Origin: an uncultured Christensenellaceae bacterium
GTDB taxonomy: Bacteria; Bacillota; Clostridia; Christensenellales; SZUA-584
Reading direction: 5' to 3'
Assembly (NCBI GenBank): GCA_964586785.1
Contig: CAZPHS010000005.1
Coordinates: 28,402-92,401, forward strand
DNA length: 64,000 bases
The notes under the pieces were generated by a model that searched no databases, was not told where the DNA came from, and saw only the letters and a program-made list of their open reading frames with translations. Below are positions 2,776 through 32,018 of this stretch, piece by piece. The position numbers and the translations under genes are program-made. The stretch's first letter is position 1. Every line of letters begins with the position of its first letter.

Positions 2776-2791
2776 AATCGTCTAATGTATG

Positions 2792-2825
2792 AAATTGGGC
2801 TAGCGAGAATCCGCTAGCCCAATTT
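2792..2825 (+). terminator. Intercistronic stem-loop (partial terminator or mRNA stabiliser) between SBP and ATPase
   Basis: 14-bp perfect stem AAATTGGGCTAGCG/CGCTAGCCCAATTT with a 6-nt loop. Confidence 0.7.
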
Positions 2826-2844
2826 TCTGGAGAGGTATTGCTCT

Positions 2845-14289: not shown

Positions 14290-14361
14290 ACGGGGACTTT
14301 ATTAAATGAGTAAGACCGTGCCATTGCGCAAAATATTAAGTGATTATAGGGAGAAACAGAT

Positions 14362-14994: not shown

Positions 14995-15138
14995 CGGGTT
15001 TTGGGCTGGGCAAGTATACTATTACATTCATGACGCTTTATTCGGATATGAACAAAACGGAATATGCTGAATATAAGGACGGCTTATATTAAGAAAGACC
15101 TTTATTTATCTTGCAGCTGAAAATGTTATACTGGGGTT

Positions 15139-16134: not shown

Positions 16135-16157
16135 ATGTGTTACTCCTTTTGTATGGA

Positions 16158-17888
16158 TTATTTCTCTTCTGCCGCCTGCCGCGCTTTTCTTTTGCGCGCC
16201 ATGAAAAACACGGTGACTGCGTACATAACGGCCAGCACAGCCGCTGCAATCCAGCCCATCAATCCGCCGGTATTGTCCGCGGGGGCGGGGCGCGCCTGCA
16301 CAGTTTCGGTCTCCGGCGCAAGTTTGGCAGGCAGGCCGGTTTTGTTAGTATTGAGCGTATCCGGCAGTTCATCGAGCGTAATAACCTTTTCGTGCCCATA
16401 AACCTTGCGCAGCATGTTAAGACCGGTGTATTCATCGCTATAAGGCCGCCCGGGGGCCTGCATGTCTACAGTAAACTCGCGGTACCACGGGGCGAACCAG
16501 AGCCACATCGCGCCTTCTTTAACGAGAAGGTCGGGGTCGGGTATAACGCCTACCTCAGTCAGCGCAATGATCTTTGGTGTCCGGGTATACGTGAGCGCCT
16601 GCTGAAATTGTTCGGTCTGTGGTGAATAGTCATGTTTTTCGGGGTAGATATCAAGCCCTATGATGTCAACGGTATCGTCGCCCGGATACCATGCGTTAAA
16701 TTCGTCCGTGTCGTTGCTCTGGCCGTTCCAGACCCATATCAGGTTACGCAGCCCGTGGTGGTTCACAAGGCGATCGTAGATCAGGTTCCAAAGAGCTATG
16801 TAGTTCTCACTGCCCTGCGTGCCCCACCAGAACCAGCCTCCCGCCGCCTCGTGCAACGGACGCCAGAGCACGGGCACGTCCGCGTCCTGTAAAAGTTTGA
16901 GTTGCGCGGCTACCATATCGATATCCTTAAGCATCAGATCGTAGCCTTGCGGATCATCGCCGCTGAGCGCTTTGGCGAAATTAAAATTCGTGGCGGATTT
17001 GTAGAAAGATCTATTCCACGGGTTGTCGGCGGTATCCATGATATCCTTGGGCGAATACCAGTGCCAGCAAAAGGTCACGATGCCGCCCGCGTTCCACCAC
17101 TCGATCGCCTTTTCGATGGTGTGCTGCGGCTCCGTAAGTCGCTTTTCGCTCAGCGTTGTGTAATACATCAGATCGAAGCCCATTAAAGCGGGGTATTTGC
17201 CTGTCTGCGCAAAGATAGCCGCGGCTTCGGGCGCGTCATATCCTTCCGAATACTGGCCGGACAGCACATAATCGCCATAGATACCGCAAAGGTATTCCAT
17301 AAGCCGCTGCGCGCTGTCGGCGGCGTCGGGCGTTACCAGCTCCGGTCGCGCGTACAGCGGGCCCACCTTGGGCGTCTGCAATCTGACTATCAGCGCATCC
17401 ACGTAAAAATACCCCCAGTTTTCCATAATCTTTACGGTATGCGTGCCGACGGTGAATTCCGCCTCAAGCACCTGCGTGGTGAAGCTGTTGGATTGCGGCG
17501 TGGCCAGCGCTTCGCTTTGGCGCTCGCCATCGTCAATCGCGATGTCGTTCTTCTTATGAGTATACGGGCAACAGGTTTTGAACACAAGGTCGTATTTGCC
17601 CGCTTTGTCGATTTCAATGGTGAAAGTCAGCGTGCTGAAATCCGCGTCGGTGTTGTTGAACTCGCCAACAAACCCTGTTCCGGAGTAGCCTTCCACAGCG
17701 TAGCCCTGACCGACCGCATCGTCGGTAAACTCCGTCAGCACCTCGTTGTTTTCCAAAATCGCGTCCTCGGCCTCGTAAATAACGCCATTTTCGCCCGAGT
17801 AGTCGTTTTGTTGCGCCGCAAACGCCGCGTTCGGCAGACCTGCCGCCAGCATCACGACGGTCAGCGGGAGAATAAGATACTTTTTCAT
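16158..17888 (-). CDS. Membrane-anchored endo-beta-1,4-mannanase, CBM35-like module plus GH26
   Basis: Signal peptide; YEAEDA...GYSGTGFV CBM; WRPLHEAAGGWFWWG (acid/base) and ALTEVG (nucleophile); C-terminal TM plus RKRK. Confidence 0.92.
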   Translation of the reverse strand: MKKYLILPLTVVMLAAGLPNAAFAAQQNDYSGENGVIYEAEDAILENNEVLTEFTDDAVGQGYAVEGYSGTGFVGEFNNTDADFSTLTFTIEIDKAGKYDLVFKTCCPYTHKKNDIAIDDGERQSEALATPQSNSFTTQVLEAEFTVGTHTVKIMENWGYFYVDALIVRLQTPKVGPLYARPELVTPDAADSAQRLMEYLCGIYGDYVLSGQYSEGYDAPEAAAIFAQTGKYPALMGFDLMYYTTLSEKRLTEPQHTIEKAIEWWNAGGIVTFCWHWYSPKDIMDTADNPWNRSFYKSATNFNFAKALSGDDPQGYDLMLKDIDMVAAQLKLLQDADVPVLWRPLHEAAGGWFWWGTQGSENYIALWNLIYDRLVNHHGLRNLIWVWNGQSNDTDEFNAWYPGDDTVDIIGLDIYPEKHDYSPQTEQFQQALTYTRTPKIIALTEVGVIPDPDLLVKEGAMWLWFAPWYREFTVDMQAPGRPYSDEYTGLNMLRKVYGHEKVITLDELPDTLNTNKTGLPAKLAPETETVQARPAPADNTGGLMGWIAAAVLAVMYAVTVFFMARKRKARQAAEEK

Positions 17889-18123
17889 ATACACTGTTCC
17901 TTTCTAAAATACGTTAAGTTAATATTCTAATTGGGTTAGGTAACTGTTATGGTAATATACTTAACATATATACTAGTGTTTGTAAAGCAAAAAGTGCAGA
18001 CAAAACGCGTCCGCCGGTTAACTTAATAAGCTAGTGACAAGATGCGGCAGCGTGTGATATGATTCTGTGTAATGGTTGGGGCGGCTTTATTTTATATGCA
18101 AGATATGAGGAACAAATAGGAAT

Positions 18124-19143
18124 ATGGCAATGAAAAAGAAAGTTACAATGAAGGATATCGCGCGCGAGCTCGGTGTGAGCACGGTAACGGTTTCCAAGGC
18201 TTTAACGGATAAGGAAGGTGTGAGCGAAGAGGTCCGAACGCAGATCAAGTTGCTGTCTAAAAAGATGGGATACCTTTATATCCCCTCGAAGAACGGCGTG
18301 AATTCGCGTGAGACAAACATAGGCATTGTGATGGCGGATCGTTTTTTTTCCAATAACGCTTTTTATTCCAATCTATATAAGACGGTGGTGCTAAAAGCTG
18401 CTGACGCGGGCTTTTCGGGCATACTTGAGATCGTGTCCGAGCAGGCGGAAAGAGAGTTGACGCTGCCGCAGGTCATCGCGCAGAACAAGGCGGACGGTAT
18501 CATATTCCTGGGGCAAATGGATAAGGCCTATATCAATCTGATAGTGGGCGCGGGCTTGCCGTACGTGTTTTTGGACTTTTATGACGAACATGCCGATGTC
18601 AGCGCGGTGGTGAGCGACAGCGTGTACGGCACCTACCAGCTTACGAACTATCTGCTGGAGCAGGGGCATACGCGCGTCGGCTTTATCGGAAACATCACCT
18701 CGACCAGCAGTATACTTGACCGGTATCTGGGGTATTGCCGCTCGTTGCTTGAGCACGGCGTGCCCATGCGTGGCGACTGGCTGATAAGCGATCGCGACGA
18801 GAGGGGTCGTTTCATCGACATTGCGATGCCCGACGATATGCCCAGCGCTTTTGTGTGTAACTGCGACGAGGTGGCGTATCAGCTGATGGAGAAATTAAAA
18901 ACGCAGGGCTACAGCCTGCCTGCCGACATCTCGCTAGTGGGCTTTGACGATCACGTATACGCCAAGCTGTGCATACCGCAACTGACCACGTATCGCGTGG
19001 ACGTGGAGGCGATGGGCGCGGCCGCGGTTTCAACAATTATACGCAAAATCAACAAAAAGTACTGCATACCCGGGCGGATCGTCGTGGGGGGCGAGTTTGT
19101 CATAAGGGATTCTGTCGCTCGAATCGCGCCGTCCGCCGTTTAA
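18124..19143 (+). CDS. LacI family regulator of mannan locus
   Basis: KVTMKDIARELGVSTVTVSKAL HTH; ISLVGFDD..LTT sugar-binding domain. Confidence 0.93.
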   Translation: MAMKKKVTMKDIARELGVSTVTVSKALTDKEGVSEEVRTQIKLLSKKMGYLYIPSKNGVNSRETNIGIVMADRFFSNNAFYSNLYKTVVLKAADAGFSGILEIVSEQAERELTLPQVIAQNKADGIIFLGQMDKAYINLIVGAGLPYVFLDFYDEHADVSAVVSDSVYGTYQLTNYLLEQGHTRVGFIGNITSTSSILDRYLGYCRSLLEHGVPMRGDWLISDRDERGRFIDIAMPDDMPSAFVCNCDEVAYQLMEKLKTQGYSLPADISLVGFDDHVYAKLCIPQLTTYRVDVEAMGAAAVSTIIRKINKKYCIPGRIVVGGEFVIRDSVARIAPSAV

Positions 19144-19172
19144 CCATAGTGCGCCGCTAAAGTCCATAAACC

Positions 19173-19208
19173 AAGCTTTTCGGGGTCTTCGCTCGAAAGG
19201 CTTTTTTG
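19173..19208 (+). terminator. Rho-independent terminator after LacI gene
   Basis: AAGCTTTTCGGG/CTCGAAAGGCTT stem followed by a T tract. Confidence 0.75.
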
Positions 19209-19256
19209 TTTACGTAAATAAAGTAACTTGTTATACATAAATAGAGAAAGTTACCC

Positions 19257-19284
19257 TTGACAATTACTTAACGATGGATATAAT
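19257..19284 (+). promoter_or_regulatory. Sigma-A promoter of mannan ABC operon
   Basis: TTGACA (19257) - 16 nt - TATAAT (19279). Confidence 0.75.
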
Positions 19285-19344
19285 TAAAGCTATGTTAACC
19301 TAAAAACAATATTCCACAAACAAATCAAATCAAGGAGGAAAATC

Positions 19345-20694
19345 ATGAAGAAGCAACAAAAAATCGTTCTGGCGGCGCTTTTGTGCCTTGTGATGGTCAT
19401 GACTGTTTTTGCCGGATGCGGGAAAACCGAGGTGCCGGCGGATACCGGCGACCCGGACGCGTCAGCGCCCGTTGTTGTCGAACCGGAGAATATCAGCGGT
19501 ACTATCACCATGCTTACGCACAGGACGGATAGACTTGCGGACGGTACGTTTGACGCGCTGCTCGCACAGTTTAAGGAGAAGTACCCCGGCGCGGACGTAA
19601 AGTTCGAGGGTATTACTGACTATGCCGGCGAGCTGGCCACCCGTGTACAGACCAAAGAATACGGCGATGTGCTGATGATACCCGACGCAGTTCCCGCCAC
19701 AGAGTACCCGCGTTATTTTGAGCCGCTGGGCACCGTGGAAGAGCTTTCCGGCAAATATCGTGAAGAGTACCTGTACTCAAAATGGATCGACGGCAAGGTT
19801 TACGGACTCGCTTACATGAGCACGGTACAGGGCATACTTTACAATAAGGCCGTGTTTGCCGAAGCCGGCATTACCACGCTTCCCAAGACGCCTGAAGAAT
19901 TCCTCGATGCGCTAAGGCTCATTAAAGACAACACCGACGCAATTCCCTATTATACCAACGCGAACTCCGGCTGGCCGCTTAACCAGTGGGAAGACCACTG
20001 CGCAGGTTCGGTAACAGGCGATCCGGATTACAAAAATAACAAGCTTGCTCTTGACAAGCAGGCGTGGGCTCCCGGCAGCTCACACTATGTTGTTGCCAAA
20101 CTGCTCTATGACGTAATCGATCAGGGCCTTTGCGAAGCCGACCCCACAACCTGTGACTGGGAGGCGTCCAAGGGTATGCTCAACCGCGGCGAGATAGGCT
20201 GCATGGTTCTCGGAAACTGGGCGATCTCTCAGATGAAGGAAGCAGGCGACACTCCCGAAAACGTCGGATACATGCCTTTCCCCGTTACGGTCGGCGGCAA
20301 GCAGTATGCGACATCCGCGACGGATTATTGCTACGCCATCAACATCCACAGCGAGAACAAAGATCTCGCACGCGCATGGATCGACTTCCTGCTTGACGAA
20401 TCTGGTATTGCTGTGAGAGAGGGCGGTATCTCGCTGCTCAAGGGCGATCCCATGCCGGGCGGACTCGAAGATTTTGAAGGCGTAATATTTGTGGTGGATA
20501 ATCCGGCGACGGATGAAAACGTTGGCAAGCTGACCGAGGTGGAGATAGAATCGGGTCTCGCGCTCTATGACGAGTCCAGAATGGCGCGCATCGTTGACGC
20601 GGCGCGCAATATATCAGGTGAAACATTCGATGCGATCATGGCTGATCTCAACGCGAAATGGGCGGCCGCGATTGATGTCGTATACGGTGGCTAA
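19345..20694 (+). CDS. Oligosaccharide ABC substrate-binding lipoprotein (manno-oligosaccharides by context)
   Basis: Lipobox FAGC; family-1 SBP features; locus context. Confidence 0.9.
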   Translation: MKKQQKIVLAALLCLVMVMTVFAGCGKTEVPADTGDPDASAPVVVEPENISGTITMLTHRTDRLADGTFDALLAQFKEKYPGADVKFEGITDYAGELATRVQTKEYGDVLMIPDAVPATEYPRYFEPLGTVEELSGKYREEYLYSKWIDGKVYGLAYMSTVQGILYNKAVFAEAGITTLPKTPEEFLDALRLIKDNTDAIPYYTNANSGWPLNQWEDHCAGSVTGDPDYKNNKLALDKQAWAPGSSHYVVAKLLYDVIDQGLCEADPTTCDWEASKGMLNRGEIGCMVLGNWAISQMKEAGDTPENVGYMPFPVTVGGKQYATSATDYCYAINIHSENKDLARAWIDFLLDESGIAVREGGISLLKGDPMPGGLEDFEGVIFVVDNPATDENVGKLTEVEIESGLALYDESRMARIVDAARNISGETFDAIMADLNAKWAAAIDVVYGG

Positions 20695-20736
20695 ACAAGA
20701 ACTGACAACATATCAACTTTAATTCCGGCGTTTGAC

Positions 20737-20770
20737 GCGGGCTGTCCGACATGCCTTTTTGACAGCCCGC
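20737..20770 (+). other. Intercistronic stem-loop after SBP gene
   Basis: GCGGGCTGTC...GACAGCCCGC 10-bp inverted repeat. Confidence 0.6.
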
Positions 20771-20840
20771 TGCTTACCGCCGCCGTGCGATGTCCGTAAC
20801 AGGGCCGGGACGCGAAGCCGGAATGTATAGCGAGGTTCAT

Positions 20841-21791
20841 ATGAAACTTTCAACTTCCGAATCGGGCGTAGCCGGCACAAGCAAAGTGAAGACGATGTTA
20901 TCAAAGCCGCGCGGCATGTCGCAGATCAAGAGCCAGCAGCGGATTACAATCATTTGTTTTCTGGCTATTCCTTTGCTCTTGCTGTTTGTGTTCACATATC
21001 TGCCTTTGGTAGACATGGTCCGGTACAGCTTTTACAAATGGGACGGCTATTCCCAGATGAAGTTTATCGGTTTTGATAACTATATCACCGCGCTGGTTCA
21101 GTCCGAATACTGGGCGGCGTTTCGCACCAGCCTTTATTATCTGGTCGGTTCGCTTGTGCAGATAGCGATTGCGCTGTTCTTTTCTACGCTCTTTTGCTAC
21201 AAAATGCGCGGGCGCAGTTTTTTCAAGGGCGTACTGTTTTTTCCGTCGCTGATGAACGGCGTCGCAATCGGGTTTGTGTTTTTGTATTTTTTCAAAGGCG
21301 GCGGCACGTTGGATACCATATTAGTGGCATTCGGCGTACCCGCGAAGGACATTCCACTGTGGCTTGGCAATATCAACCTGATCAACATTTCGCTGACATT
21401 TGTGTCGGTATGGCGCTATATGGGACAGAACATGGTCATGTTCTCAGGCGCTACGGAGTCAATCAGCGGAGATTTTTTTGAGGCCGCCGAGATCGACGGC
21501 GCGAATAAATGGCAGCAGTTCTGGTATATCATACTGCCGAATATCCGCGGCGTAGTGGCGCTAAACCTGATACTGGCCGTCAAGGGCGCAATCAGCGTGT
21601 ATGAGATACCGTTCGTAATGACGCGCGGAAGCGGGGGTTCGATGACATACGTTATCAAAACGCTGCACACCGCGTTCACGAGCCGGAAGATAGGGCTGGC
21701 GTGCGCTCTGGGTGTGATACTGCTGATTATGGTTCTAATTATATCCGTAATCCAAAAACGGTTCGTGGAAGGCAAGGAGGAGAAAGCGTGA
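20841..21791 (+). CDS. Carbohydrate ABC permease 1
   Basis: GAGG RBS before ATG20841; EAAEIDGANKWQQF EAA motif. Confidence 0.92.
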   Translation: MKLSTSESGVAGTSKVKTMLSKPRGMSQIKSQQRITIICFLAIPLLLLFVFTYLPLVDMVRYSFYKWDGYSQMKFIGFDNYITALVQSEYWAAFRTSLYYLVGSLVQIAIALFFSTLFCYKMRGRSFFKGVLFFPSLMNGVAIGFVFLYFFKGGGTLDTILVAFGVPAKDIPLWLGNINLINISLTFVSVWRYMGQNMVMFSGATESISGDFFEAAEIDGANKWQQFWYIILPNIRGVVALNLILAVKGAISVYEIPFVMTRGSGGSMTYVIKTLHTAFTSRKIGLACALGVILLIMVLIISVIQKRFVEGKEEKA

Positions 21792-22633
21792 AAACAAACA
21801 CACCCGTCAGAACGGCGGTGCTCAAAACGCTCAAATATTTAGTATTGACCGTCGCGGTGCTGATCACGCTGATTCCGTTGCTGGTCGTATTATTAGGCTC
21901 GCTTAAGACTAATCAGGAGCTTTTCAGCACGGGACCGCTCGATCTGCCGCGGAACTGGTTCAATCTGCAAAACTACGTGACAGCGTTCACCGACGGCAAG
22001 ATGCTGCTCGGCTTTTGGAACACGGCGTTGATACTGGCAGCGGCTCTATGTGCCACCGTGCTGTTGGGAGCCATGACGGCGTATGTGCTGAGCCGCTTTC
22101 GCTTCAAGTTTCGCGGCACAATCAAAATGCTTTTTTTGGTGGCGTCGCTGATTCCCAGTATCACCATGCAGATGAGTACGTTTCAGATAATTGTGGGGCT
22201 CGGGCTTTATGATACCATGTGGGCGACGATATTGCTGTTTGCGGGCACGGATATCATCTCTATCTATATTTTCTTGCAGTTCCTCAACGGCATACCGGTC
22301 TCGATTGACAGTGCGGCGATTATGGACGGCGCGTCCTTCCCGCAGATATTTTTCAGGATCATTATGCCGCTGCTAAAGCCGGCCATCGTGACGGTAGTAA
22401 TCATAAAGGGCGTGGCGTTTTACAACGAGTTTTACACGCCGTACCTTTATATGAAGAATCAGAATCTGTCGGTGATATCCACATCTCTCTACCGTTTTCA
22501 GGGACCATATAACACACAGTGGGAGGTAATCTGCGCGGGTATCATAATAACGATGATACCGACATTGGTCATATTCCTGCTGCTGCAAAAATGGATATAC
22601 AGAGGACTGACGGAAGGTTCGGTTAAGGAATAG
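21788..22633 (+). CDS. Carbohydrate ABC permease 2
   Basis: GTG overlapping upstream TGA; SAAIMDGAS EAA-like motif; WIYRGLTEGSVKE. Confidence 0.9.
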   Translation: MKTNTPVRTAVLKTLKYLVLTVAVLITLIPLLVVLLGSLKTNQELFSTGPLDLPRNWFNLQNYVTAFTDGKMLLGFWNTALILAAALCATVLLGAMTAYVLSRFRFKFRGTIKMLFLVASLIPSITMQMSTFQIIVGLGLYDTMWATILLFAGTDIISIYIFLQFLNGIPVSIDSAAIMDGASFPQIFFRIIMPLLKPAIVTVVIIKGVAFYNEFYTPYLYMKNQNLSVISTSLYRFQGPYNTQWEVICAGIIITMIPTLVIFLLLQKWIYRGLTEGSVKE

Positions 22634-22652
22634 AAACGAGGGTTTTGACATC

Positions 22653-23666
22653 ATGGAAAAAATCAAACTGATAATGGGCAAGTCGCTGCCGGATCTGCCT
22701 TGGGAGCCAAGACCGAAAGGATGCGGCGATGTCGTCTGGCGATATTCGGGGAATCCGGTCATAGGGAGAAATCCGATCAAAAACGTGGTACGGATATTCA
22801 ACGGCTCGGTGCTGCCCTATGAAGGCGGCTATATAGGCGTGTTCCGCGGGGAACAGCGCGACGGTATCCCCCATATTTATCTTGGCCGCAGCAAAGACGG
22901 TTTTGTGTGGGGCTTTGAGCAAGAACGTGTCCGTCTTGAGGATACCGGTGGCCGCGAGGTTTGTCTCAAATATGCGTACGATCCGCGTCTTGTCGAAATC
23001 GACGGTACGTATTATTTCATGTGGTGCACGGATAACCACGGCGCCACCATAGGGCTTGCCAAAACAACGGATTTTAAGCGCTTTAGTATTATGGACAATC
23101 CGTTTCTGCCATTCAACCGCAACGCCGTGCTGTTTCCGCGTAAAATCAACGGCAGCTATATTATGTTGTCGCGCCCGAGCGACGGCGGCCACACGCCCTT
23201 CGGCGATGTGTTTTTAAGCGAAAGTCTCGATCTTGTGTATTGGGGCAAACACAAGCATGTGCTTGCGCCCACGGGCAATTGGTGGGAATCCGTCAAGGTT
23301 GGGGGCGGCGCGGTGCCCATTGAAACCAGCGAGGGATGGCTGCTTTTCTACCACGGCGTAACGAGCACCTGCAACGGCTTCGTTTACAGCGTCGGTTGCG
23401 CGCTGCTGGATCGCGAGCGGCCGTGGATCGTGCGTCATCGCAGTAAAAACTTTCTGCTCACGCCCGAGACAGCATACGAAGAGCGCGGCTTTGTGCCCAA
23501 TGTGTGCTTCCCGTGCGCGGCGCTTGTAGACGCTCAGACGGGGCGCATCGCCATATACTACGGCGCGGCGGACAGCTGTGTGGCGCTGGCTTTTGCGTTC
23601 CTAGATGAGATTGTCGCCTATGTGAAGGACAACGGAATGTCTGCCGATGCGGGGAGCGCCAAATGA
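22653..23666 (+). CDS. GH130 beta-1,4-mannooligosaccharide phosphorylase-type enzyme
   Basis: RYSGNPVI, YAYDPR, NRNAVLFPRKING, YYGAADS motifs. Confidence 0.9.
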   Translation: MEKIKLIMGKSLPDLPWEPRPKGCGDVVWRYSGNPVIGRNPIKNVVRIFNGSVLPYEGGYIGVFRGEQRDGIPHIYLGRSKDGFVWGFEQERVRLEDTGGREVCLKYAYDPRLVEIDGTYYFMWCTDNHGATIGLAKTTDFKRFSIMDNPFLPFNRNAVLFPRKINGSYIMLSRPSDGGHTPFGDVFLSESLDLVYWGKHKHVLAPTGNWWESVKVGGGAVPIETSEGWLLFYHGVTSTCNGFVYSVGCALLDRERPWIVRHRSKNFLLTPETAYEERGFVPNVCFPCAALVDAQTGRIAIYYGAADSCVALAFAFLDEIVAYVKDNGMSADAGSAK

Positions 23667-24856
23667 CAAAGTCGATACACACTCTCGCGGAATGGTCCAG
23701 ACACGAGCTTAAAGAACGCATTATTCCGTTTTGGCACGCGCTGCGCGATGATACGCACGGCGGCTTTTGCGGAAGGGTAGATTACAACCTTGATAAGGAC
23801 TGGCAGGCCGACAAGGGCAGCATACTCAACAGCCGCATACTCTGGTTCTTTTCCAACGCGTATATGCTTTTTGGGGACGAAACGCTAATGGACGACGCGA
23901 ACCATGCGTATCGTTTTTTGTGCGATCACTGCCTTGACAGCCGAAACGACGGGGTTTATTGGTCGGTTAAATACGACGGCGCTGTCAGCGATAGCACCAA
24001 GCACACTTATAATCAGGGCTTCGCGATATACGCGTTGTGCGCTTATTACGATGCCACCGGAGACAAGCGCGCACTTAACCGCGCGCATAAGCTGTGTACC
24101 CTCATCGAGAAAAAGTGCCGCGACGATATGGGGTATCTGGAATCGTTCACGGCGGATTTTCTGCCGGAGCCGAACAAAAAGCTTTCTGAAAACGGCGTTA
24201 TCGCCCACCGCACGATGAACACCACGCTGCACGTGCTGGAGGCCTATACCGAGCTTTACCGAATGGGAGGGCGCGCGCAAACCGCCGACCTGCTGCGCAC
24301 GCTGCTAGATATAATCGCCGACAAAATATACGACCCTCAAAAAACGCGGCTGAACGTATTTTTCAATGAGCAGATGGGGCACATTCTTGATCTTGAGTCG
24401 TACGGACACGATATAGAGGCGGCATGGCTTATCGACCGTGCGTGCGCCGTGCTCAAAGACCCCGCGTATTCCGCGAAGCTCGCGCCGCTCACCGCCGCGC
24501 TTGAGCGCAAAACACTTAGCCGCGCGCTGGAAAAATCCATGCTGATCAATGAAAGTTGCAACGGCAAGGAGGATCGCACGAGCATCTGGTGGGTGCAGGC
24601 TGAGGGTGTTGTGGGTTTTGTTAACGCGTATCAGAAAGCGCGGTCTGGCAAAGGGTATCTGAAGGCCGCTTACGACCTTTGGACGCACATTCGTGAAAAT
24701 CAGATAGACCGCCGTACTGGGTCCGAATGGCTCTGGGCTGTGGACGAGAACGCCGTTCCGAAGGAAGATCAGCCGATTGTAAACGAATGGAAATGCCCGT
24801 ATCATAACGGCCGAATGTGCATCGAGCTGATAAGGAGAGCGGCACATGCTTCATGA
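23663..24856 (+). CDS. Cellobiose/mannobiose 2-epimerase (AGE family)
   Basis: [52 protein letters not shown]. Confidence 0.92.
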
Positions 24857-26021
24857 ACGTTACCGTACCGAGCTTGAAAAGCATCACGCGCTGCTTGCGC
24901 GGAAAAATGAAAGGGCCGGGTTTTACAACGGCCTGTTCGAGCGTTATGAGAACCCGGTGCTCACGCGGGATCATATACCGCTTACCTGGCGGTACGACCT
25001 TGATGCGCGAAGCAACCCGTATTTTATGGAGCGACTTGGCGTCAACGCGGTTTACAACGCGGGCGCGATCGAGATGGACAGCCGCTATTACCTTGTCGCG
25101 CGCGTGGAGGGCAACGACCGCAAATCGTTTTTCGCAGTGGCGCAAAGCGACAGCCCGGTGGACGGCTTTGCGTTCTGGGACTATCCAGTTTGCCTGCCCG
25201 ATACGTGCGCCGAGGAAACCAACGTGTACGATATGCGCCTTACGCGCCATGAAGACGGATACATCTACGGCGTGTTTTGCTCCGAGCGCAAGGATACGGC
25301 ATCGCAAGACGTTTCCGCGGCCATTGCGTTGGCAGGCATTGTACGCACGCGCGACTTGAAAACATGGGAAAGGCTGCCCGATCTCGTGACGCCGCGCTCG
25401 CCGCAGCAGCGTAACGTGGTGTTGCATCCCGAATTTGTGGATGGCTGTTACGCGTTTTATACGCGGCCGATGGACGGCTTTATAGATGCCGGCTCGGGCG
25501 GCGGCATCGGCTTTGGGCTGTGCGCGGATATTGAAAACGCGCACATCAATGAGGAACGTATAATCAGCGCGCGCCGGTACCACACCGTCTCGGAAGCCAA
25601 AAACGGTGCGGGCGCCGTACCCATCAAGACGCCCGAAGGTTGGATACATATAGCGCATGGCGTACGTCATACGGCCGCCGGACTGCGCTACGTGCTGTAC
25701 GCGTTCGCGACGGCGCCAGACGACCCATCGCGGCTGATCGCCGAGCCGTCGGGGCTGCTGCTGGGGCCGCTCGGAGCGGAGCGCGTGGGTGATGTATCCA
25801 ACGTGGTGTTCACCAATGGCGCTATCGCGCGCGATAACGGCGAGGTTTACATATACTACGCGTCGTCCGACACGCGGCTGCATGTGGCATCAACGCATAT
25901 CGAGCGCCTTGTCGATTATGTATTCAATACGCCTGCCGATCCGCTGCGCTCCGCCGATTGTGTGCGGCAGCGCTGCGCGATGATTGATAAAAACGCTGCG
26001 CTGCTGGAAAGCGGGCGGTAG
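24846..26021 (+). CDS. GH130 4-O-beta-D-mannosyl-D-glucose phosphorylase
   Basis: [41 protein letters not shown] motifs; follows the epimerase. Confidence 0.92.
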
Positions 26022-26035
26022 CGGAGGATAACGCT

Positions 26036-27076
26036 ATGCCGGTATTTAAGCTTACGCCCGTCTGCAAAAGCTATGTCTGGGGCGGGGCGCGGCTGATAAC
26101 GGAGTTTGGCAAGCGCTGCGAACGCCTGCCGCTGGCCGAGACGTGGGAGCTTTCATGCCATCGGGAAGGCCAGAGCACCATTGCGCAGGGCGTTCACGTA
26201 GGCTGTACGCTTGCGGACTGGCTGGTGTCGGTGGAATGGGATGCGCTCGGGTATAACTGCGCCGGAGATTTTCCGATACTTATTAAGCTTATCGATGCCG
26301 CGCAGGCGCTCTCCGTACAGGTGCATCCGGATGACGATTACGCGGCGGCGCACGAAGGGCAGAGCGGCAAAACCGAGGCGTGGTATATTGTAGATTGTGA
26401 CGCAAATAGTTACATATACTTGGGTTTTACGCGTACGCTGGATACGGAAGAGTTTGTTAGGCGCACCGGGGATGGCACGCTAGCCGAGGTAATGGAAAAA
26501 ATTCCCGTCAAAAAAGGCAACGTTTTTTTTGTGCCGCCGGGTACGGTGCACGCTATTGGCCCGGGGTTACTGATTGCTGAGATACAGCAGTCCTCCAACG
26601 TGACGTACCGCGTGTACGACCATGGGCGTGTTGATATTGATGGCACCGCTCGGGAGCTGCACATCGCACAGGCCTGTGATGTGGCACGGCTGGAACCTGC
26701 GCGCACCGACTACGATTTTAAGGGGCATCTTGTGGACTGCCCGTATTTTACCGTCGACAAGTTGCGTGTACAGGGCGGCGGAATGTATTTCGCGGGTGCG
26801 GATTCGTTTCATTCGCTGCTCGTTCTTGAGGGCGAGGGCGAAATCATTTGCGGCGGCGACGCGTTGCACTTTTGCAGGGGCGACAGCCTTTTTGTGCCGG
26901 CGTGCTCGGGCGAATACGTCGTATCGGGGCGCTGCGAAGCGCTGCTGACTACAATCGGTTCAAAGGCGCGGGCGCATACGGCGGGCGCGATAGACGAAGA
27001 TGCGTATGAAGGAGGGCGGGCTGCTGATGGATTATATGGCGGTGTACGGCGAATGGATTGGCAGTTCGGTTTTTGA
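26036..27076 (+). CDS. Mannose-6-phosphate isomerase, type I
   Basis: YVWGG, AETWELS, PILIKLIDA..LSVQVHPDD, GKTEAWY, EIQQSSNVTYRVYD. Confidence 0.92.
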   Translation: MPVFKLTPVCKSYVWGGARLITEFGKRCERLPLAETWELSCHREGQSTIAQGVHVGCTLADWLVSVEWDALGYNCAGDFPILIKLIDAAQALSVQVHPDDDYAAAHEGQSGKTEAWYIVDCDANSYIYLGFTRTLDTEEFVRRTGDGTLAEVMEKIPVKKGNVFFVPPGTVHAIGPGLLIAEIQQSSNVTYRVYDHGRVDIDGTARELHIAQACDVARLEPARTDYDFKGHLVDCPYFTVDKLRVQGGGMYFAGADSFHSLLVLEGEGEIICGGDALHFCRGDSLFVPACSGEYVVSGRCEALLTTIGSKARAHTAGAIDEDAYEGGRAADGLYGGVRRMDWQFGF

Positions 27077-28742
27077 TGCCCAGACAAGGCAAGAACTGCG
27101 CGCGCTGCGCAGTAACGCCGCCGAAATAGCAGACCGTTTCGGCAAAGAGCTTGAATTTGGTACGGGAGGGCTGCGCGGAATTATAGGCGCGGGCACCAAC
27201 CGTATGAATATATACACGGTGCGCAAGGCCACACAGGGGCTTTGTGATTACATCAGCGCTGTGGGCGGGCGCGAAAAAGGAGTAGCGATAGCATACGATA
27301 CGCGGCGGTTTTCGGAGTTATTTGCCGAGGAAGCGGCCTGTTGTTTGTGTGCCAATGGCATACCAGCCTATGTTTTTTCGGGGCCGGCGCCTACGCCGCA
27401 GCTGTCTTTCGCGGTGCGCGCGCTTCACTGCACGGCGGGCATAGTGATTACCGCGAGCCACAATCCGCCCGAATATAACGGCTATAAGGTGTATGGAGAG
27501 GACGGCGCGCAGATCACACCGCCGCATGACGCGCAGATCATCGCTGCCGTCAGGGGCGTGGCGAGCTACGGCGCGGCCAAAACGATGCCGAAGCGCGAGG
27601 CCATTGACGCGGGGCTTTACCGCATACTTTCTAAAAATATGGATGACGAGTACATCGCCGCGATTAAGCGTCTTAGCTTAACGGATGCGGCGCACGCGCG
27701 GAATCTGACGATTGTCTATACGCCGCTGCACGGCACAGGCGGCGCGCTGACCGCGCGAATACTGGACGAGGCGGGGTTTGGCAACCTTTATATAGTGCCC
27801 GAGCAGGCCGAACCGGACGGCGCTTTCCCCACGGTCAAGTTTCCGAACCCCGAGGATACCGGCGTTTTTGCGTTGGCCGAAAGGTTGGCACTCAGTGTGG
27901 GGGCGGACATCATTCTCGCGACGGACCCGGACGCGGACAGGCTTGGAGCGGGTGTGCGCGACAGCCGTTCGGGCGGATATGTGTATCTTAACGGCAACAT
28001 GACCGGCGCGCTTTTGTGTGATTATATACTCGGCCGACACGCGCGGCGCGGCACGCTGCCCGCCAACGGCGCGGTGGTATCCACCATTGTGTCCGGTAAG
28101 TTAGGCGCTGCCATTGCCGCCGGTTACGGCGTACGCTATTTTGAAACGCTGACCGGGTTTAAATACATCGGCGAAATGATCGACCGTTTCGAGCTTTCGT
28201 CGCACATATTTTTGTTCGGTTACGAGGAAAGTTGCGGATATCTGGCGGGCTCGCACGCGCGCGATAAAGACGCGATATGCGCCGTGATGCTGCTGTGCGA
28301 AGCCGCAGCATATTATAAGGAAAAAGGCAAGACGCTTTGTGAACGGCTGGACGAGCTTTATGAACAATACGGCCATTACCGCGAGAAACTGGTGACTGTT
28401 ACACTTAAAGGCGCCGAGGGAGCCGGCCGGATTGACACGCAAATGGCCGGATTGCGCCGCAACCCACCGCGTACGCTTGGCGATATGCGTGTGAATCGTA
28501 TCCGTGATTATAAGGTTGGTGTAATCGCGGACACGGCCACAGGCGACATACAAAAAACGCAGCTGCCTGTTTCAGATGTGTTGTATTTCGAACTGGACGA
28601 AGGAGCATGGTGCTGCGTCCGGCCTTCGGGTACCGAACCTAAGCTTAAATGCTATTTCGGCGTCAGGGGAGAAGACGACGCCGATGCGATGCGAAGGCTT
28701 AAAGCTCTGGAAATGGCGCTAAAGCCGGTGCTGGCGGTCTAA
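27027..28742 (+). CDS. Phosphoglucomutase/phosphomannomutase
   Basis: FGTGGLRG, ITASHNP, TDPDADR, GYEES, RPSGTEPK; GGAGGG RBS before ATG27027. Confidence 0.93.
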   Translation: MDYMAVYGEWIGSSVFDAQTRQELRALRSNAAEIADRFGKELEFGTGGLRGIIGAGTNRMNIYTVRKATQGLCDYISAVGGREKGVAIAYDTRRFSELFAEEAACCLCANGIPAYVFSGPAPTPQLSFAVRALHCTAGIVITASHNPPEYNGYKVYGEDGAQITPPHDAQIIAAVRGVASYGAAKTMPKREAIDAGLYRILSKNMDDEYIAAIKRLSLTDAAHARNLTIVYTPLHGTGGALTARILDEAGFGNLYIVPEQAEPDGAFPTVKFPNPEDTGVFALAERLALSVGADIILATDPDADRLGAGVRDSRSGGYVYLNGNMTGALLCDYILGRHARRGTLPANGAVVSTIVSGKLGAAIAAGYGVRYFETLTGFKYIGEMIDRFELSSHIFLFGYEESCGYLAGSHARDKDAICAVMLLCEAAAYYKEKGKTLCERLDELYEQYGHYREKLVTVTLKGAEGAGRIDTQMAGLRRNPPRTLGDMRVNRIRDYKVGVIADTATGDIQKTQLPVSDVLYFELDEGAWCCVRPSGTEPKLKCYFGVRGEDDADAMRRLKALEMALKPVLAV

Positions 28743-28744
28743 AC

Positions 28745-28872
28745 GGGACGTTTGCCGTAAGGCGAGAGGCTCGATTCGCCGCTTAACTCTAAACGGCGCG
28801 TTTACAAGCCGATAGCCGGCAAACCCATGGTTTCTTACGGAAGAGGGGAGCAAGGCGAACTTTGCTCCGTCG
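28745..28872 (-). repeat. Structured element B (CCA-CGWC-stem-CCTYTT-stem architecture), unnamed
   Basis: Minus strand CCA|CGAC GGAGCAAAG TTCG CCTTGCTCC CCTCTT CCGTAAG...CTTACGG; same layout as element A next to the tRNA. Confidence 0.55.
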
Positions 28873-28953
28873 TGGAATGCTTTGACTAAAAAGATATCGT
28901 TCGGATTCCATGGATAAGTGAGTAACCGCAAAAGACAGTGCGCAACATGGCCA

Positions 28954-29676
28954 TCATAAATCCTTTATCATAAGGAAGTCTTCATGTCCTGCGTGGTCGA
29001 GCCGCTCGCCCGACACCCTATATCCGAGCCGCTGATAAAACCGCACGGCAGGATTATTCTTTTGTACCGAAAGCGAGGTCTGTTTATATCCGTTTTCGCG
29101 CAACACTTTAAACAGTTTTTTCATAAGCTTAGTTCCAATACCATAGCCACGGAATTCGGGTAAAATTGATATGGCAAGTTCAGGTATATAATTATCAATG
29201 TGTCCATAAGCCGGGACAATGCGCGTCCATGCCGCACCGATTACTTGCCCGTTCTGTTCAGCAACGACCCCCAAGTCTCCCGCCTGTACTCCAAACTCCT
29301 TTATATAAATAAATATCTCCGGCTCGTTGATAACGCTTCGTGGCGGTGGTTCTTTTTCTTCGGGAATGAAAATTGCCTGATACAAAAACTCAGGCAGGCA
29401 TACATAATCGGATTCTCGCATCACACGGACTTTGGCGTTTATTTTGTGCGCCGTGATGATCGTGTAGCTATGCGTATTGATGGTGATGACGACACCGCCG
29501 CTATACACATACCAGTTCTTGCCTTGCCCAATGATAATATCCGAACGCTTCACAACATCCTTACACCAACCCACAACATCATCTGTTTGCAAATTAAGAT
29601 GGCGCTTTATCCGCGCTTTTCCCAATTCCGTTGTATGGAGTTTATCAAGGCTTGCGATTAAGTCTTTCAATTGCAT
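28954..29676 (-). CDS. DUF3781-like domain fused to GNAT acetyltransferase
   Basis: N-term LHTTELGKARIKRHL...GKNWYV...TIITAHK; C-term ELAISILPEFRGYGIGTKLM...SLSVQKNNPAVRFYQRLGY. Confidence 0.8.
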   Translation of the reverse strand: MQLKDLIASLDKLHTTELGKARIKRHLNLQTDDVVGWCKDVVKRSDIIIGQGKNWYVYSGGVVITINTHSYTIITAHKINAKVRVMRESDYVCLPEFLYQAIFIPEEKEPPPRSVINEPEIFIYIKEFGVQAGDLGVVAEQNGQVIGAAWTRIVPAYGHIDNYIPELAISILPEFRGYGIGTKLMKKLFKVLRENGYKQTSLSVQKNNPAVRFYQRLGYRVSGERLDHAGHEDFLMIKDL

Positions 29677-29819
29677 ACCGCCTTTCCCCGGCTCTTTTTA
29701 TTGCGATTGAGCTTTTTTAGCTCTCCTGCAAAAGCGTAATATTCGGGTTTCATGTCGTAAAACAGTTTCAGATTGAATGAGGCGTTTTGAATAATATCAT
29801 CAAACAATTCGGCATTCAT
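29667..29819 (-). CDS. Small hypothetical ORF (50 aa) overlapping the DUF3781-GNAT start
   Basis: MNAELFDDIIQNASFNLKLFYDMKPEYYAFAGELKKLNRNKKSRGKAVCN*; TATAAT on minus strand at 29844-29849; no clear RBS. Confidence 0.4.
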   Translation of the reverse strand: MNAELFDDIIQNASFNLKLFYDMKPEYYAFAGELKKLNRNKKSRGKAVCN

Positions 29820-29920
29820 GCAGCAATGGTCGTCCGACGGTTTATTATACAGTATAAAACTTCACGACAGTGTATCATATTAGAAAATAGATAACAACCC
29901 GCCATCAACCGGATTCTGTC

Positions 29921-30030
29921 AATCTGCGGTGGGTTGCTTGAAATGTACCCGCAGAAAAGGAGCGGTGACGGAGCATGGAAAATCCCGCAGGTTTTCCCGC
30001 GGGATTGGAATCGCGGAGTCCACCGCGACG
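29921..30030 (-). ncRNA. Structured element A immediately 3' of tRNA-Arg, unnamed (RNA or folded-DNA site)
   Basis: Hairpins TCGCGG/CCGCGA, AATCCCGCGGG/CCTGCGGGATT and TCTGCGG/CCGCAGA, plus long-range GCGGTG(G)AC/GTCACCGC. Confidence 0.55.
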
Positions 30031-30107
30031 TGGCGTACCCGGGAGGATTCGAACCTCTGGCCTTTGGAGTCGGAGTCCAACGCTCTATCCGGCTGAGCTA
30101 CGGGTAC
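30031..30107 (-). tRNA. tRNA-Arg(CCG), CCA encoded
   Basis: Cloverleaf GTACCCG/CGGGTAC acceptor, anticodon loop CTCCGAC, TTCGAAT T-loop, 77 nt. Confidence 0.96.
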
Positions 30108-30118
30108 ACGGCTCATTA

Positions 30119-30147
30119 AATATAACAGCTAAAAACGGTCAAGTCAA
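30119..30147 (-). promoter_or_regulatory. Sigma-A promoter of tRNA-Arg
   Basis: TTGACT - 17 nt - TATATT on minus strand. Confidence 0.65.
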
Positions 30148-30321
30148 TTTAATTCAAGCCGCTTTTATTGCCGCGGTTTGCGGCTCGCGTATTTATCAAA
30201 CATAAAACATTATCAGCTTTCTTTAACAAACGCTGTTTTTTTCTATCCGAAATTGCGCACATAATTTGCGGCAAAAGGCGAAAAATATCATCAGGACAAA
30301 CTTTAGAAAGGTGGAGCTGAC

Positions 30322-30477
30322 ATGCAAAAATTCAAGTCGGGTCAAAAAGCGCCGCAAAGCGGAGATTATAAGATAGTAAACGAAAGGGGACAGGTGGTCA
30401 GAAACGGCGTTACGCTCGACAAGGGCGATTCGTTTCCGCCGACACCGGGCGCAAACCAGCATTTCGTAAAAGAGTAG
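30322..30477 (+). CDS. YjzC-family small protein (51 aa; absent from ORF track)
   Basis: GAAAGGTGGAG RBS; MQKFKSGQKAPQSGDYKIVNERG...LDKGDSFPPTP motif. Confidence 0.85.
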   Translation: MQKFKSGQKAPQSGDYKIVNERGQVVRNGVTLDKGDSFPPTPGANQHFVKE

Positions 30478-30554
30478 GGATAAAGGGGGAAAGGAATATC
30501 CGGGGATTTGCGGAACAGAAAAACTCTTTGTCCGACTATCCTCGTGCGGAGGCG

Positions 30555-30589
30555 AACCAGTTACTATCAGGTGTAGTAGCTGGTTTTTT
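30555..30589 (+). terminator. Rho-independent terminator
   Basis: AACCAGTTACTAT/GTAGTAGCTGGTT stem plus T tract. Confidence 0.75.
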
Positions 30590-30734
30590 GCGGATTAAAA
30601 CAACATGTTGCAGGGAAAGTTAAACGTCATTTTAATAATTTATGTATTATATAATACCAAAACAAATATCAATTTGATATAATGGCTGTTAAGAAAATTT
30701 TTAAGCTTAATAAACAAAAGGATACGGGTGCGCG

Positions 30735-32018
30735 ATGGAAGCGAAAACCATAACATTAATACTGTTCTTGATTACTTACGCGTGTTTATTAATATATTCA
30801 AAGGCCAAAGCCTATATAGCGATTGGCTGCGCATTGATATTTGCCATTCTGGGTCAAATAGGTTTGTTGCCGGTATACAACTACTTAGCTGCAATCGATT
30901 GGAATGTTATAATGATGATTGCCGGCACAATGGGTGTTGTATCACTTTTTATTGAATCGAAAATGCCTTCAAAATTAGCCGATTTTATTATAGATAGGGT
31001 TCCCAATGTAAAATGGGCTATGGTGTCCCTGGCGTTATTCGCGGGCGTTATTTCCGCTTTCGTTGATAACGTCGCAACGGTTATAATGGTGGCGCCGGTC
31101 GCTCTTAATATCTCAAAGAAGCTTAGGATATCTCCCATACCAAGCATTATAACCATAGCGGTTTCATCCAATCTTCAAGGCGTCGCAACCTTAGTCGGCG
31201 ATACCACTTCCATTCTTCTCGGCGGAGAGGCAAACATGAATTTCCTTGATTTTTTCTTCTACAAAGGAAGGCCCGGGATATTCTGGGTGGTGGAAGCGGG
31301 CGCTCTCGCAACGGTGTTTATACTGCTCTGGTTGTTTAAAAAATATAAACATCCTATAAAATCTATGAACAAGACCGTAGTAAAAGATTATTTTCCCACC
31401 GTACTGCTTGTCGGAATTGTTGTTTTGTTAACGGCCGCTTCTTTTATAGGCAACAAGCCCGCCATAACAAATGGCCTTATATGCGTTGGATTAATGGTTG
31501 TGGGGCTGATACGTAAATTTATAAAGACAAGGGACAAAAATACGCTTGCCGACGCGCTCAGAGAGATTGATTATACAACGCTGAGTTTGCTGGCGGGTCT
31601 TTTCATTGTTATTGGGGGAATTAAAGAAGTGGGCATTATAGAAGATATTGGCGCGTTTTTTGTGTATGCCGGAAAGGGCAATTTATTTGTTATCTATTCT
31701 TTGATTCTTTGGGCGTCTGTGGCCATTTCCGCGGTTATTGATAATATACCGTATGTCGCCACCATGCTGCCGGTAACAACCGCTATCGCCGCAACAATGG
31801 GTATTGACCCGACGATTTTATATTTTGGTCTATTGGTTGGCGCAACCTTGGGCGGAAACATTACGCCAATAGGCGCATCGGCCAATATAGCGGGCATAGG
31901 CATACTCCGTAAAGCGGGTTACGACGTAGAGGCGAAAGATTTTATGAGAATAAGCGTTCCGTTTACACTCACGGCCGTGGCAACCGGTTATATATTGGTT
32001 TGGCTTATCTGGGCGTAA
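30735..32018 (+). CDS. ArsB/NhaD/SLC13-type ion or anion permease
   Basis: ISAFVDNVATV, SSNLQGVATLVGD, IDNIPYV, GGNITPIGASAN motifs. Confidence 0.88.
   Translation: MEAKTITLILFLITYACLLIYSKAKAYIAIGCALIFAILGQIGLLPVYNYLAAIDWNVIMMIAGTMGVVSLFIESKMPSKLADFIIDRVPNVKWAMVSLALFAGVISAFVDNVATVIMVAPVALNISKKLRISPIPSIITIAVSSNLQGVATLVGDTTSILLGGEANMNFLDFFFYKGRPGIFWVVEAGALATVFILLWLFKKYKHPIKSMNKTVVKDYFPTVLLVGIVVLLTAASFIGNKPAITNGLICVGLMVVGLIRKFIKTRDKNTLADALREIDYTTLSLLAGLFIVIGGIKEVGIIEDIGAFFVYAGKGNLFVIYSLILWASVAISAVIDNIPYVATMLPVTTAIAATMGIDPTILYFGLLVGATLGGNITPIGASANIAGIGILRKAGYDVEAKDFMRISVPFTLTAVATGYILVWLIWA

Follow-up and report, generated by a model that had tools for sequence, protein, structure and literature searches.

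The window analysed here comprises 64,000 nucleotides (nt) from an uncultured Clostridium (order Christensenellales) of landfill or digester origin, and its sole tRNA gene, detected by ARAGORN and by Rfam (RF00005, 63.9 bits), is a tRNA-Arg(CCG) with an encoded CCA located at 30031–30107; this gene and the features described below lie on the minus strand unless another strand is given. The stretch under study, 29921–30030, abuts the CCA with zero gap, as was already recognized in an earlier note on this DNA, trailer nt 1 corresponding to 30030. It falls within a noncoding module of ~150–200 nt, anchored on the tRNA 3' end, that is found behind tRNA-Arg(CCG) in several Christensenellales (gut and digester Clostridia); in the window the module extends from 30030 to about 29885, which is also the point reached by the homology with related loci. 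The reading favoured here, to which about an even chance is given, is that the stretch represents the tRNA-proximal part of this module and acts as a compound terminator and insulator of tRNA-Arg(CCG).

The tRNA is preceded by yjzC, a CitMHS transporter gene and a UDG-family gene, while a mannan-use operon (GH130, mannose-6-phosphate isomerase and phosphoglucomutase) converges on the locus from the opposite side, with its end at 28742. A putative promoter of the sigma-70 type (30119–30147; TTGACT, a 17-nt spacer, TATATT and an upstream TG, 10/12 in a consensus scan) is located 12 nt upstream of the tRNA and, because of this promoter-like site, tRNA-Arg(CCG) is most likely its own transcription unit, so that the trailer would be made from the tRNA promoter. 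Co-transcription of tRNA and trailer, as proposed in the earlier note, is thus plausible, also considering that there is no space for a further promoter between them. A second, candidate promoter-like site (29851–29878; 9/12 in the consensus scan, with a perfect TATAAT at about 29845–29850) precedes the downstream cassette.

The 110-nt trailer has a minimum free energy (MFE) of -44.9 kcal/mol in comparison to -30.1 ± 3.2 kcal/mol for shuffled sequences (z-score -4.66; 0/200 shuffles as good), and the three hairpins announced in the earlier note, here named H1, H2 and H3, all exist. In H1 (GUCGCGG/CCGCGAU; 30010–30029) trailer nt 2–8 pair with nt 15–21 (-11.6 kcal/mol, z -3.0). H2 (29981–30006; trailer nt 25–50), which reads AAUCCCGCGGG-AAAA-CCUGCGGGAUU and has an 11-bp stem (-19.2 kcal/mol, z -4.3), begins 24 nt past the CCA, and H3 (29923–29955; nt 76–82 with nt 102–108; -11.3 kcal/mol, z -3.0) is a lineage-specific hairpin. 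H2 is enclosed by an outer helix, in which a 5' arm with one bulged base, GCGGUG(G)AC (30018–30026; nt 5–13), pairs in the MFE fold with the 3' arm GUCACCGC (29962–29969; nt 62–69). The outer helix is followed by the CU-rich single-stranded linker UCCUUUU (29955–29961), unpaired in the MFE fold, whose family motif UCCUYUUCC is the best-conserved primary sequence of the module (alignments A1, A2, and A4); the CUCCU segment, which the earlier note describes as complementary to Shine-Dalgarno sequences, is indeed present at nt 69–73 and overlaps this motif. The CGUC spacer, the outer helix with the enclosed sequence and the pyrimidine tail constitute domain 1 of the module (29954–30030; MFE -33.6 kcal/mol, z -4.8), and the fold z-scores of domain 1 range from -4.3 to -6.7 across six lineages. 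Downstream of H3, a terminator scan detects H4 (29885–29915, with the hairpin at 29915–29896), a weak hairpin with the U-rich tail GUUAUCUAUUUUCU whose fold is no better than that of shuffles (z -0.4); H4 aligns with the inner hairpin of L020 and with the terminal AUCUAUUUUCU of L045, where L-numbers are the names of the related loci compared with the window.

H1 and the outer helix are mutually exclusive, as stated in the earlier note, and near-equal in energy: the MFE fold chooses the outer helix (-33.6 kcal/mol), while the state with H1 has about -30.8 kcal/mol, a gap of only ~3 kcal/mol. The two pairings compete solely with each other and H2 is unbroken in both alternative folds. A degenerate tRNA 3' end inside the trailer was also considered, since the 7-mer CGGGUAC (nt 80–86) is also present in the acceptor 3' strand, and was rejected, because nothing above shuffles emerged when the tRNA end together with the first 30 trailer nt was aligned locally with the sequence from +30 on; by our own estimate the common 7-mer is within chance.

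The related loci derive from two scans: one, over single genomes representing each species and with the last 28 nt of the tRNA as query, gave 41 loci, and the other, over metagenomes and with the tRNA end followed by CGTCG, gave 4 more. The majority of the genome-scan loci have a plain terminator immediately past the CCA; a recognizable common trailer is found in L020 (identical to L043 and L044), L034, L008, L042, L045, L007, L019, and L002, L007 belonging to a cultured carrier of the module, Guopingia tenuis NSJ-63. The common layout consists, in order, of CGUC, an arm A, a short stretch B, a strong G+C hairpin whose tail is U-rich, an arm C able to pair with A, and UCCUYUUCC(GC); in most members ~100 more conserved nt come after the motif and are closed by the long-range stem CCGCAAAAAG...CUUUUUGCGG. 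A contig of the landfill metagenome run X8 passes from window-type domain 1 (window 29954) into CACAAAAAGTCACGTTCGCATCGGCGAAGC, which is the second block of the L020 type, and this junction indicates that landfill samples contain the module in its unsplit form as well. Since the inner hairpins of different lineages cannot be aligned, an nhmmer profile built from seven modules took the place of a covariance model; it recovers window 30030–29890 with an E-value of 3e-22. With this profile no copies away from the tRNA-Arg(CCG) locus were found in the 64-kb window and 72 loci (about 410 kb), and a repeat search detected no dispersed repeats of the module in the window. The comparison with Rfam gave no match beyond the tRNA: Rfam 15 returns nothing else for the module, both at the gathering score and at E up to 10, and no match in seven related loci at E up to 0.1. 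The same search identifies elsewhere in the window a full-length c-di-GMP-I riboswitch aptamer (RF01051; 40524–40608, minus strand; 78.5 bits, E 1e-13). As judged from these sequence comparisons, the module family is undescribed and bound to the tRNA-Arg(CCG) locus in Christensenellales.

Further homologues were sought through the flanking genes. Identical YjzC proteins gave L051–L055. YjzC orthologues at 76–92% identity were discarded, being adjacent to tRNA-Ser(GGA) and not to tRNA-Arg, so that the integrases found there are irrelevant to the tRNA-Arg locus; in particular, yjzC adjoins tRNA-Ser(GGA) in L061/L062 and L067–L069 and, since a tyrosine integrase sits beside tRNA-Ser(GGA) in those relatives, a second tRNA integration site neighbours yjzC. 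The downstream GNAT gene was also abandoned as a guide, its relatives (70–83% identity) being located in unrelated accessory-gene arrays without the tRNA.

The outer helix is the structural element recovered by RNAalifold on a plain MAFFT alignment, which finds nothing else. Its arms change from lineage to lineage, from GCGGUG(G)AC/GUCACCGC in the window to GCGG(U)GGAC/GUCCCCGC in L020, GCAGCA(A)AC/GUUGCCGC in L034 and GGAGCA(A)GC/GCUGCUCC in L008 and L042, and in six sequences 93.8% of the cells are paired, with both sides changed in 5/8 pairs, a count with which a second one on seven sequences agrees. The covariation of the helix is 0.62 versus 0.30 for shuffles, none of 500 being as high, and pairing falls to 25–73% when the partner is slid by 1–3 columns. 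This pattern, which supports the long-range pairing described in the earlier note, indicates that the outer pairing is kept by selection through compensatory changes.

The other helices turn over. The sequence of the inner hairpin is unrelated between lineages, and unrelated G+C hairpins occupy the H2 position in L034, L008, L042, and L004; in L007b, a hairpin AAUCCC...GGGAUUUUUU is homologous to H2, while L045, L007, L019, L002, and L054 have a plain hairpin straight after the CCA. H1-like local hairpins can be read in the sequences of L034 and of L008/L042, each lineage in another register, and H1 is therefore not a homologous helix across lineages. H3 is seen only in the window species (window and L051), its 5' arm includes an 11-nt insertion with respect to the other modules (alignment A2), and between strains ~98% identical there are two single-nucleotide polymorphisms, G81>A and G107>A, each of which breaks an H3 pair and is uncompensated. 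Conservation, on which the earlier note had made its element depend, thus holds beyond the species for the module and fails for H3; a discrete ~110-nt species is not sustained either, the 110-nt limit being arbitrary and H3 being absent from all relatives outside the species and weakened by the two substitutions within it. As for the linker, it reads CCUCC in L008, L042, L045, L007, and L019.

The statement of the earlier note that the element has no U tract is contradicted by the sequence, in which a UUUU tract at the 3' foot of H2 (29979–29982, by U count), UCCUUUUCU directly after the outer helix, and the tail GUUAUCUAUUUUCU after H4 are present. H2 is preceded by AA and followed by UUUU, with the reading AAUCCCGCGGG-AAAA-CCUGCGGGAUU-UUCC, so that 4 U are found within 8 nt past the G+C core and are followed by CC, while the relatives have 4–6 U; a simple terminator scan (at least 5 T in 8) made no call at H2. 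In 11/12 trailers the U count in the 8 nt past the stem (4–6) exceeds the A count in the 8 nt before it. Conservation of the inner hairpin that is free of sequence and specific for orientation is behaviour typical of terminators and, since the U tracts of the inner hairpins are sense-strand specific, the functional strand would be the tRNA strand.

Starting from the observed structure, family, covariation, sense-strand U tracts and recombination hotspot (see below), termination, insulation and a folding order can be proposed as follows. The module would be built from nested and serial hairpins of the Rho-independent type, among which H2, with its A tract, 11-bp G+C stem and UUUU, would be the working terminator of a monocistronic tRNA gene and would stop most transcripts ~52 nt past the CCA. 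The outer helix would be an older hairpin, starting 4 nt past the CCA and having a pyrimidine tract after it, in whose loop H2 is now located; together with its pyrimidine tail, and with H3/H4 and their U-rich tail, it would intercept transcripts that pass H2 and shield the next gene's promoter. H1 would form once transcribed, and the outer helix only in molecules that read through H2. The layout of the locus is consistent with this scheme, in fact the tRNA has a putative promoter of its own and the promoter-like site of the next gene lies downstream of the module. Likewise, as in intrinsic terminators, tandem and bidirectional A-tract/U-tract forms included, G+C hairpins with U-rich tracts are found downstream of a gene on its strand, a stable G+C stem-loop (H2) stands at the 3' end of the unit on the transcribed strand, and the stem sequence turns over while structure and U tract stay; in contrast to them, the hairpin of the module is nested in a helix that covaries, the U tracts are short and broken up by C, and a C-rich motif is conserved in sequence.

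The mutually exclusive pairings would be a by-product of the scheme, because the hairpins nest, and they would not be a switch, because neither of them alters H2. In a riboswitch or attenuator the alternative pairing must overlap the terminator stem, whereas here H2 is intact in both folds, and matches to Rfam aptamer or leader families were not found. The switchable RNA of the earlier note accordingly loses ground, since neither pairing touches H2 and the register of H1 differs per lineage, leaving no obvious regulatory output. Release of the trailer by 3' processing, claimed in the same note, also meets an obstacle: according to PMC7479834, which cites Pellegrini 2003 and Wen 2005, a CCA that is encoded in the gene represses RNase Z, and the trimming of such precursors in Bacillus is the work of exonucleases. 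Because the encoded CCA leaves exonucleolytic trimming, the default pathway would degrade the trailer and not free it.

Several observations weigh against a terminator and insulator. With 4 U and then CC, H2 has a short U tract behind it, and termination there may be leaky; the covariation of an outer helix whose arms are 50 nt apart is left unexplained by a terminator role and stands on only three or four independent lineages. Nor does this role explain why sequence conservation is highest in the C-rich linker UCCUYUUCC, or why L045 and L007 keep the distal block behind an already good terminator. Finally, no RNA runs holding the window sequence and no strand-resolved transcripts for any carrier were found.

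The position of the module, exactly at the CCA|CGUCG junction, is a recombination hotspot. The strain-level evidence comes from L054, a 1-kb contig with an identical YjzC protein, which is 99.4% identical to window 30030–30829 (800 nt) and unrelated to the window from the first base past the CCA, where a plain long terminator is found; strain-variable DNA thus begins at the tRNA 3' end, as at an att junction, and the idea of a needed element is not supported by this comparison. In the relatives the same spot is occupied by different genes: a tyrosine integrase (PF00589, 2e-28) lies 95 nt downstream of tRNA-Arg(CCG) in L036 and reads toward the tRNA, ParA and ParB proteins are encoded in L001 and L022, respectively, and in L004 a GmrSD_N gene of restriction type (PF03235, 6e-32; 682 aa; 1839–3887, minus strand) is located between tRNA-Arg(CCG) and a complete module that starts with ...ACA|CGTCGGAGC. 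In L008 a perfect 42-nt repeat, made of 21 nt of tRNA end and 21 nt of trailer, is found 328 nt downstream. The displaced modules (window 28873/28872, L004, L042b, and L007b) are all preceded by ...CA|CG(T/A)CG, and isolated 46-nt tRNA 3' halves are present in L005, L025, L027, and L030. The 23-mer of the tRNA 3' end occurs only once in the window even when up to 3 mismatches are allowed, no integrases were found beside the isolated tRNA 3' halves of L005, L027, L030, and L037, whose neighbours are ROK, DegV, PRTase, and amidase genes, and no empty-site or excision joints were found in eight metagenome runs. A phage or viral origin was rejected, the tRNA 3' 20-mer being in no viral contig and BLAST giving no phage match.

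The location at a hotspot accounts for tandem copies, for copies that flank cargo and for a copy 1 that is nearest a non-syntenic genome. L007 has two or three tandem modules, and in L042 a second copy of the window type (22/24 nt) starts 195 nt after the start of the first. In the window, the module at the tRNA (copy 1) is followed by a cargo (28954–29819) composed of a 50-aa open reading frame (ORF; 29667–29819) and a DUF3781-GNAT acetyltransferase gene (28954–29676; PF12636 3e-24, PF00583 1e-16); the homologues of the latter are found elsewhere in unrelated arrays of small accessory genes and never beside tRNA-Arg(CCG). The 50-aa ORF, which has no Pfam match, overlaps the start of the GNAT gene by 10 nt (29667–29676, minus strand), which suggests that the two are translationally coupled. 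Beyond the cargo, CUGUCUUUUGCGGUUAC (28922–28938) resembles the 3' arm of domain 2, CUUUUUGCGGUUA, in a local alignment to the end of the L034 module that is suggestive only (score 31 versus 17.5 ± 2.9; 0/300 shuffles), and an inter-module spacer (28873–28921) ending in ...AUAUCUUUUUAGUCAAAGCAUUCCA, likewise suggestive, resembles the tandem spacer of L007 (4/300 shuffles) and to the ...GUCAAAGGUAAGCA that precedes the second module of L042.

The spacer leads to a second module copy of simple form (28745–28872), which consists of CGAC, the hairpin GGAGCAAAG-UUCG-CCUUGCUCC, then CCUCUUCCG, and the long-range stem CCGUAAG...CUUACGG, in the context ..UUCCA|CGACGGAGCAAAG-UUCG-CCUUGCUCC-CCUCUUCCGUAAG...CUUACGG. 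Copy 2 (nhmmer E 0.017; MFE z -3.5) aligns locally with the modules of L045, L042, L004, and L034 with z 4–6 (0/200 shuffles), as opposed to z 0.3 with copy 1, and its first hairpin equals that of L045 at 23/26 positions by hand count, L045 having the upstream tRNA-yjzC synteny in common with the window. Copy 1, instead, is 95.6% identical over the tRNA plus 80 nt to L020/L043/L044, and L020 has otherwise nothing in common with the window. These relationships suggest that the promoter-ORF50-GNAT cassette lies within or between two ancestral tandem modules and that copy 1 and the chromosome around it do not share the same history.

Other sequence features recur at these loci. A second hairpin, AAAA(A/G)CCCCG-AAAACAgnnnGTTTT-CGGGG(C/T)TTT, is found after the tRNA-Arg 3' end or after isolated 46-nt tRNA halves in many Clostridia (L001, L005, L009, L014, L022, L023, L025, L030, L031, L033, L039, and L040), as well as at about 1560–1525 in L004 and in L017, 105 nt past the CCA, and it is present three times in one metagenome-assembled genome (L005, L030, and L033); it looks like the conserved end of a family of integrative elements. 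In L008 (3839–3470, minus strand) the tRNA-proximal trailer has a 62-nt insert relative to its own downstream repeat, made of a terminator hairpin plus CGUCGCUGCUCCUCCUUUUCC, and a 12-nt duplication, AAGCTCCGCTTC, flanks this insert; L045 shows a comparable duplication, of CTTGCTCC. Within the window, the region of about 14000–28800 has a G+C content of 0.51–0.585 versus 0.43–0.49 in the flanks and contains the sugar-use cluster (GH130, mannose-6-phosphate isomerase, phosphoglucomutase); this region, which ends ~1.3 kb away from the tRNA, may have been acquired by transfer, and no att repeat or integrase for it was found. Six tandem 63-nt units with 60–70% identity (13108–13482, plus strand), included in an ORF at 12760–14289 for a 509-aa protein, look like leucine-rich-repeat coding units. 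On the opposite strand of the module, an antisense ORF of 76 aa (29975–30205, plus strand), preceded by GGAG, the complement of CUCCU, was considered spurious, as it crosses the tRNA in antisense and is without a conserved start in L034.

The hotspot also gives room to a different and unlikely explanation, in which the module is a DNA-level recombination site, a folded or duplex target or scar of a site-specific recombinase inserting DNA at the 3' end of tRNA-Arg(CCG), the covarying bulged palindrome and the invariant CGUCG next to the CCA being the recognition features and the hairpins being terminators incidentally; the folded DNA site of the earlier note is retained in this form, behind the terminator. 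Insertions that start exactly at CCA| in L054, the ...CA|CG(T/A)CG before every displaced copy, the perfect 42-nt repeat spanning the junction in L008, the copies that flank or follow cargo (GNAT in the window, GmrSD in L004), and the integrase adjoining this tRNA in L036 all agree with such a site, as do the 95.6% identity of copy 1 to a non-syntenic genome beside the resemblance of copy 2 to the syntenic L045, and the non-standard cells of alignment A2, where A.C are about as many as G.U and the helix has no RNA strand bias. In the same way, the locus is comparable to tRNA-targeting elements (attL/attR, genomic islands, defence hotspots, and tycheposons), as outlined in PMC10121019 and 10.1101/2020.12.28.424599, by virtue of the strain-variable DNA from the tRNA 3' end, the integrase and partition genes at the same tRNA in relatives, the partial tRNA repeats and the integrase-less cargo (GNAT, GmrSD). 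It differs from the elements outlined there in that the window repeats the trailer module and not a tRNA fragment, and has neither an integrase nor a tRNA-end repeat within 30 kb: the repeat is found in L008 and the integrase in L036. The gene content and Pfam matches of the window include no recombinase gene in the 30 kb on either side of the tRNA, no distal tRNA-end repeat is present, four partial tRNA copies have no integrase nearby, and the U tracts are strand-specific, an RNA-level feature; all this counts against a DNA site. Integron attC sites are likewise imperfect palindromes of ~60–140 nt with a bulged base, whose structure is kept while the sequence varies and which mark cassette boundaries. 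However, attC was rejected because of the absence of the RYYYAAC/GTTRRRY cores, in place of which the arms read GCGGTGGAC/GTCACCGC, GGAGCAAGC/GCTGCTCC, and GCAGCAAAC/GTTGCCGC, and, in addition, the window has no intI gene and the array is anchored on the tRNA and not on attI. To our knowledge, there are few or no known integrons in the host phylum. REP (repetitive extragenic palindromic) and BIME (bacterial interspersed mosaic element) sequences likewise form families of hairpin modules between genes, which occur in tandem and may act as terminators or insulators; unlike them, the module is not dispersed: in the 64 kb of this genome and in related loci totalling about 410 kb, every copy seen is at tRNA-Arg(CCG).

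Two further readings, both rather improbable, concern an RNA with its own function and the lack of any function. In the former, the trailer would be a functional RNA of the 3' external transcribed spacer (3'ETS) type, which its two helical domains would stabilise and whose anti-Shine-Dalgarno-like CU-rich linker (UCCUYUUCC; CCUCC in several lineages) would pair with purine-rich sites of mRNAs or small RNAs (sRNAs). The 3'ETS-leuZ of E. coli, the 3' external transcribed spacer of a tRNA, is an sRNA sponge, and PMC7213987 and PMC9514646 mention it. Such RNAs and the module have in common a structured sequence directly 3' of a tRNA, transcription from the tRNA promoter and a possible single-stranded pairing motif; however, 3'ETS-leuZ belongs to a proteobacterium, owes its release to RNase E and has Hfq-dependent sRNAs as its partners, whereas the host of the module is a Firmicute with a CCA-encoded tRNA. 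sRNA seeds are usually recognized by the layout seen here, with covarying helices on either side of a conserved motif that is left unpaired, and the trailer has a zero-gap join to the tRNA and a good promoter upstream; moreover, in the L034 species, pieces from four runs labelled as RNA accumulate on the module, one piece spanning the tRNA-trailer junction, but these runs are stored as contigs without strand information, at least two being clearly DNA-like (17-kb contigs). The encoded CCA, moreover, disfavours release by RNase Z, H2 should halt many transcripts before the linker is made, the module is missing beside the tRNA in the 99.4%-identical strain and, in L004, it comes after a protein gene and not after the tRNA. 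It is also unlikely that the module constitutes a previously undescribed class of structured site on tRNA-Arg(CCG) of Christensenellales, marked by the covarying, bulged palindrome and the conserved CU-rich motif; such a site would be either the folded DNA at which an integron-like system recombines, piling up acetyltransferase and defence genes without an integrase behind the tRNA, or a trailer-derived regulatory RNA with an anti-Shine-Dalgarno seed. The other reading, of the same low probability as the 3'ETS-type RNA, considers the module a decaying relic without a function of its own, composed of leftover insertion ends and duplicated terminators, with hairpins due to descent and G+C richness. 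A relic would agree with H3 and H4 being unconserved or folding no better than shuffles, with the mosaic and indel-rich pattern among the relatives and with the dispensability of the module in the near-identical strain L054; the double compensatory changes at 5–7/8 outer-helix pairs and the 94% pairing among lineages with different arm sequences are unexpected without selection on pairing.

If the reading as a compound terminator and insulator holds, the module represents an example of tRNA terminators that evolve by nesting, useful for annotation and unsurprising in itself, and shows how the 3' end of a tRNA gathers foreign genes in a poorly studied order of gut and digester bacteria. If, instead, the outer helix and the CU-rich motif were recognized by a recombinase or acted as RNA, the module would stand for a novel kind of tRNA-anchored cassette site or for a novel family of trailer RNAs in Clostridia.

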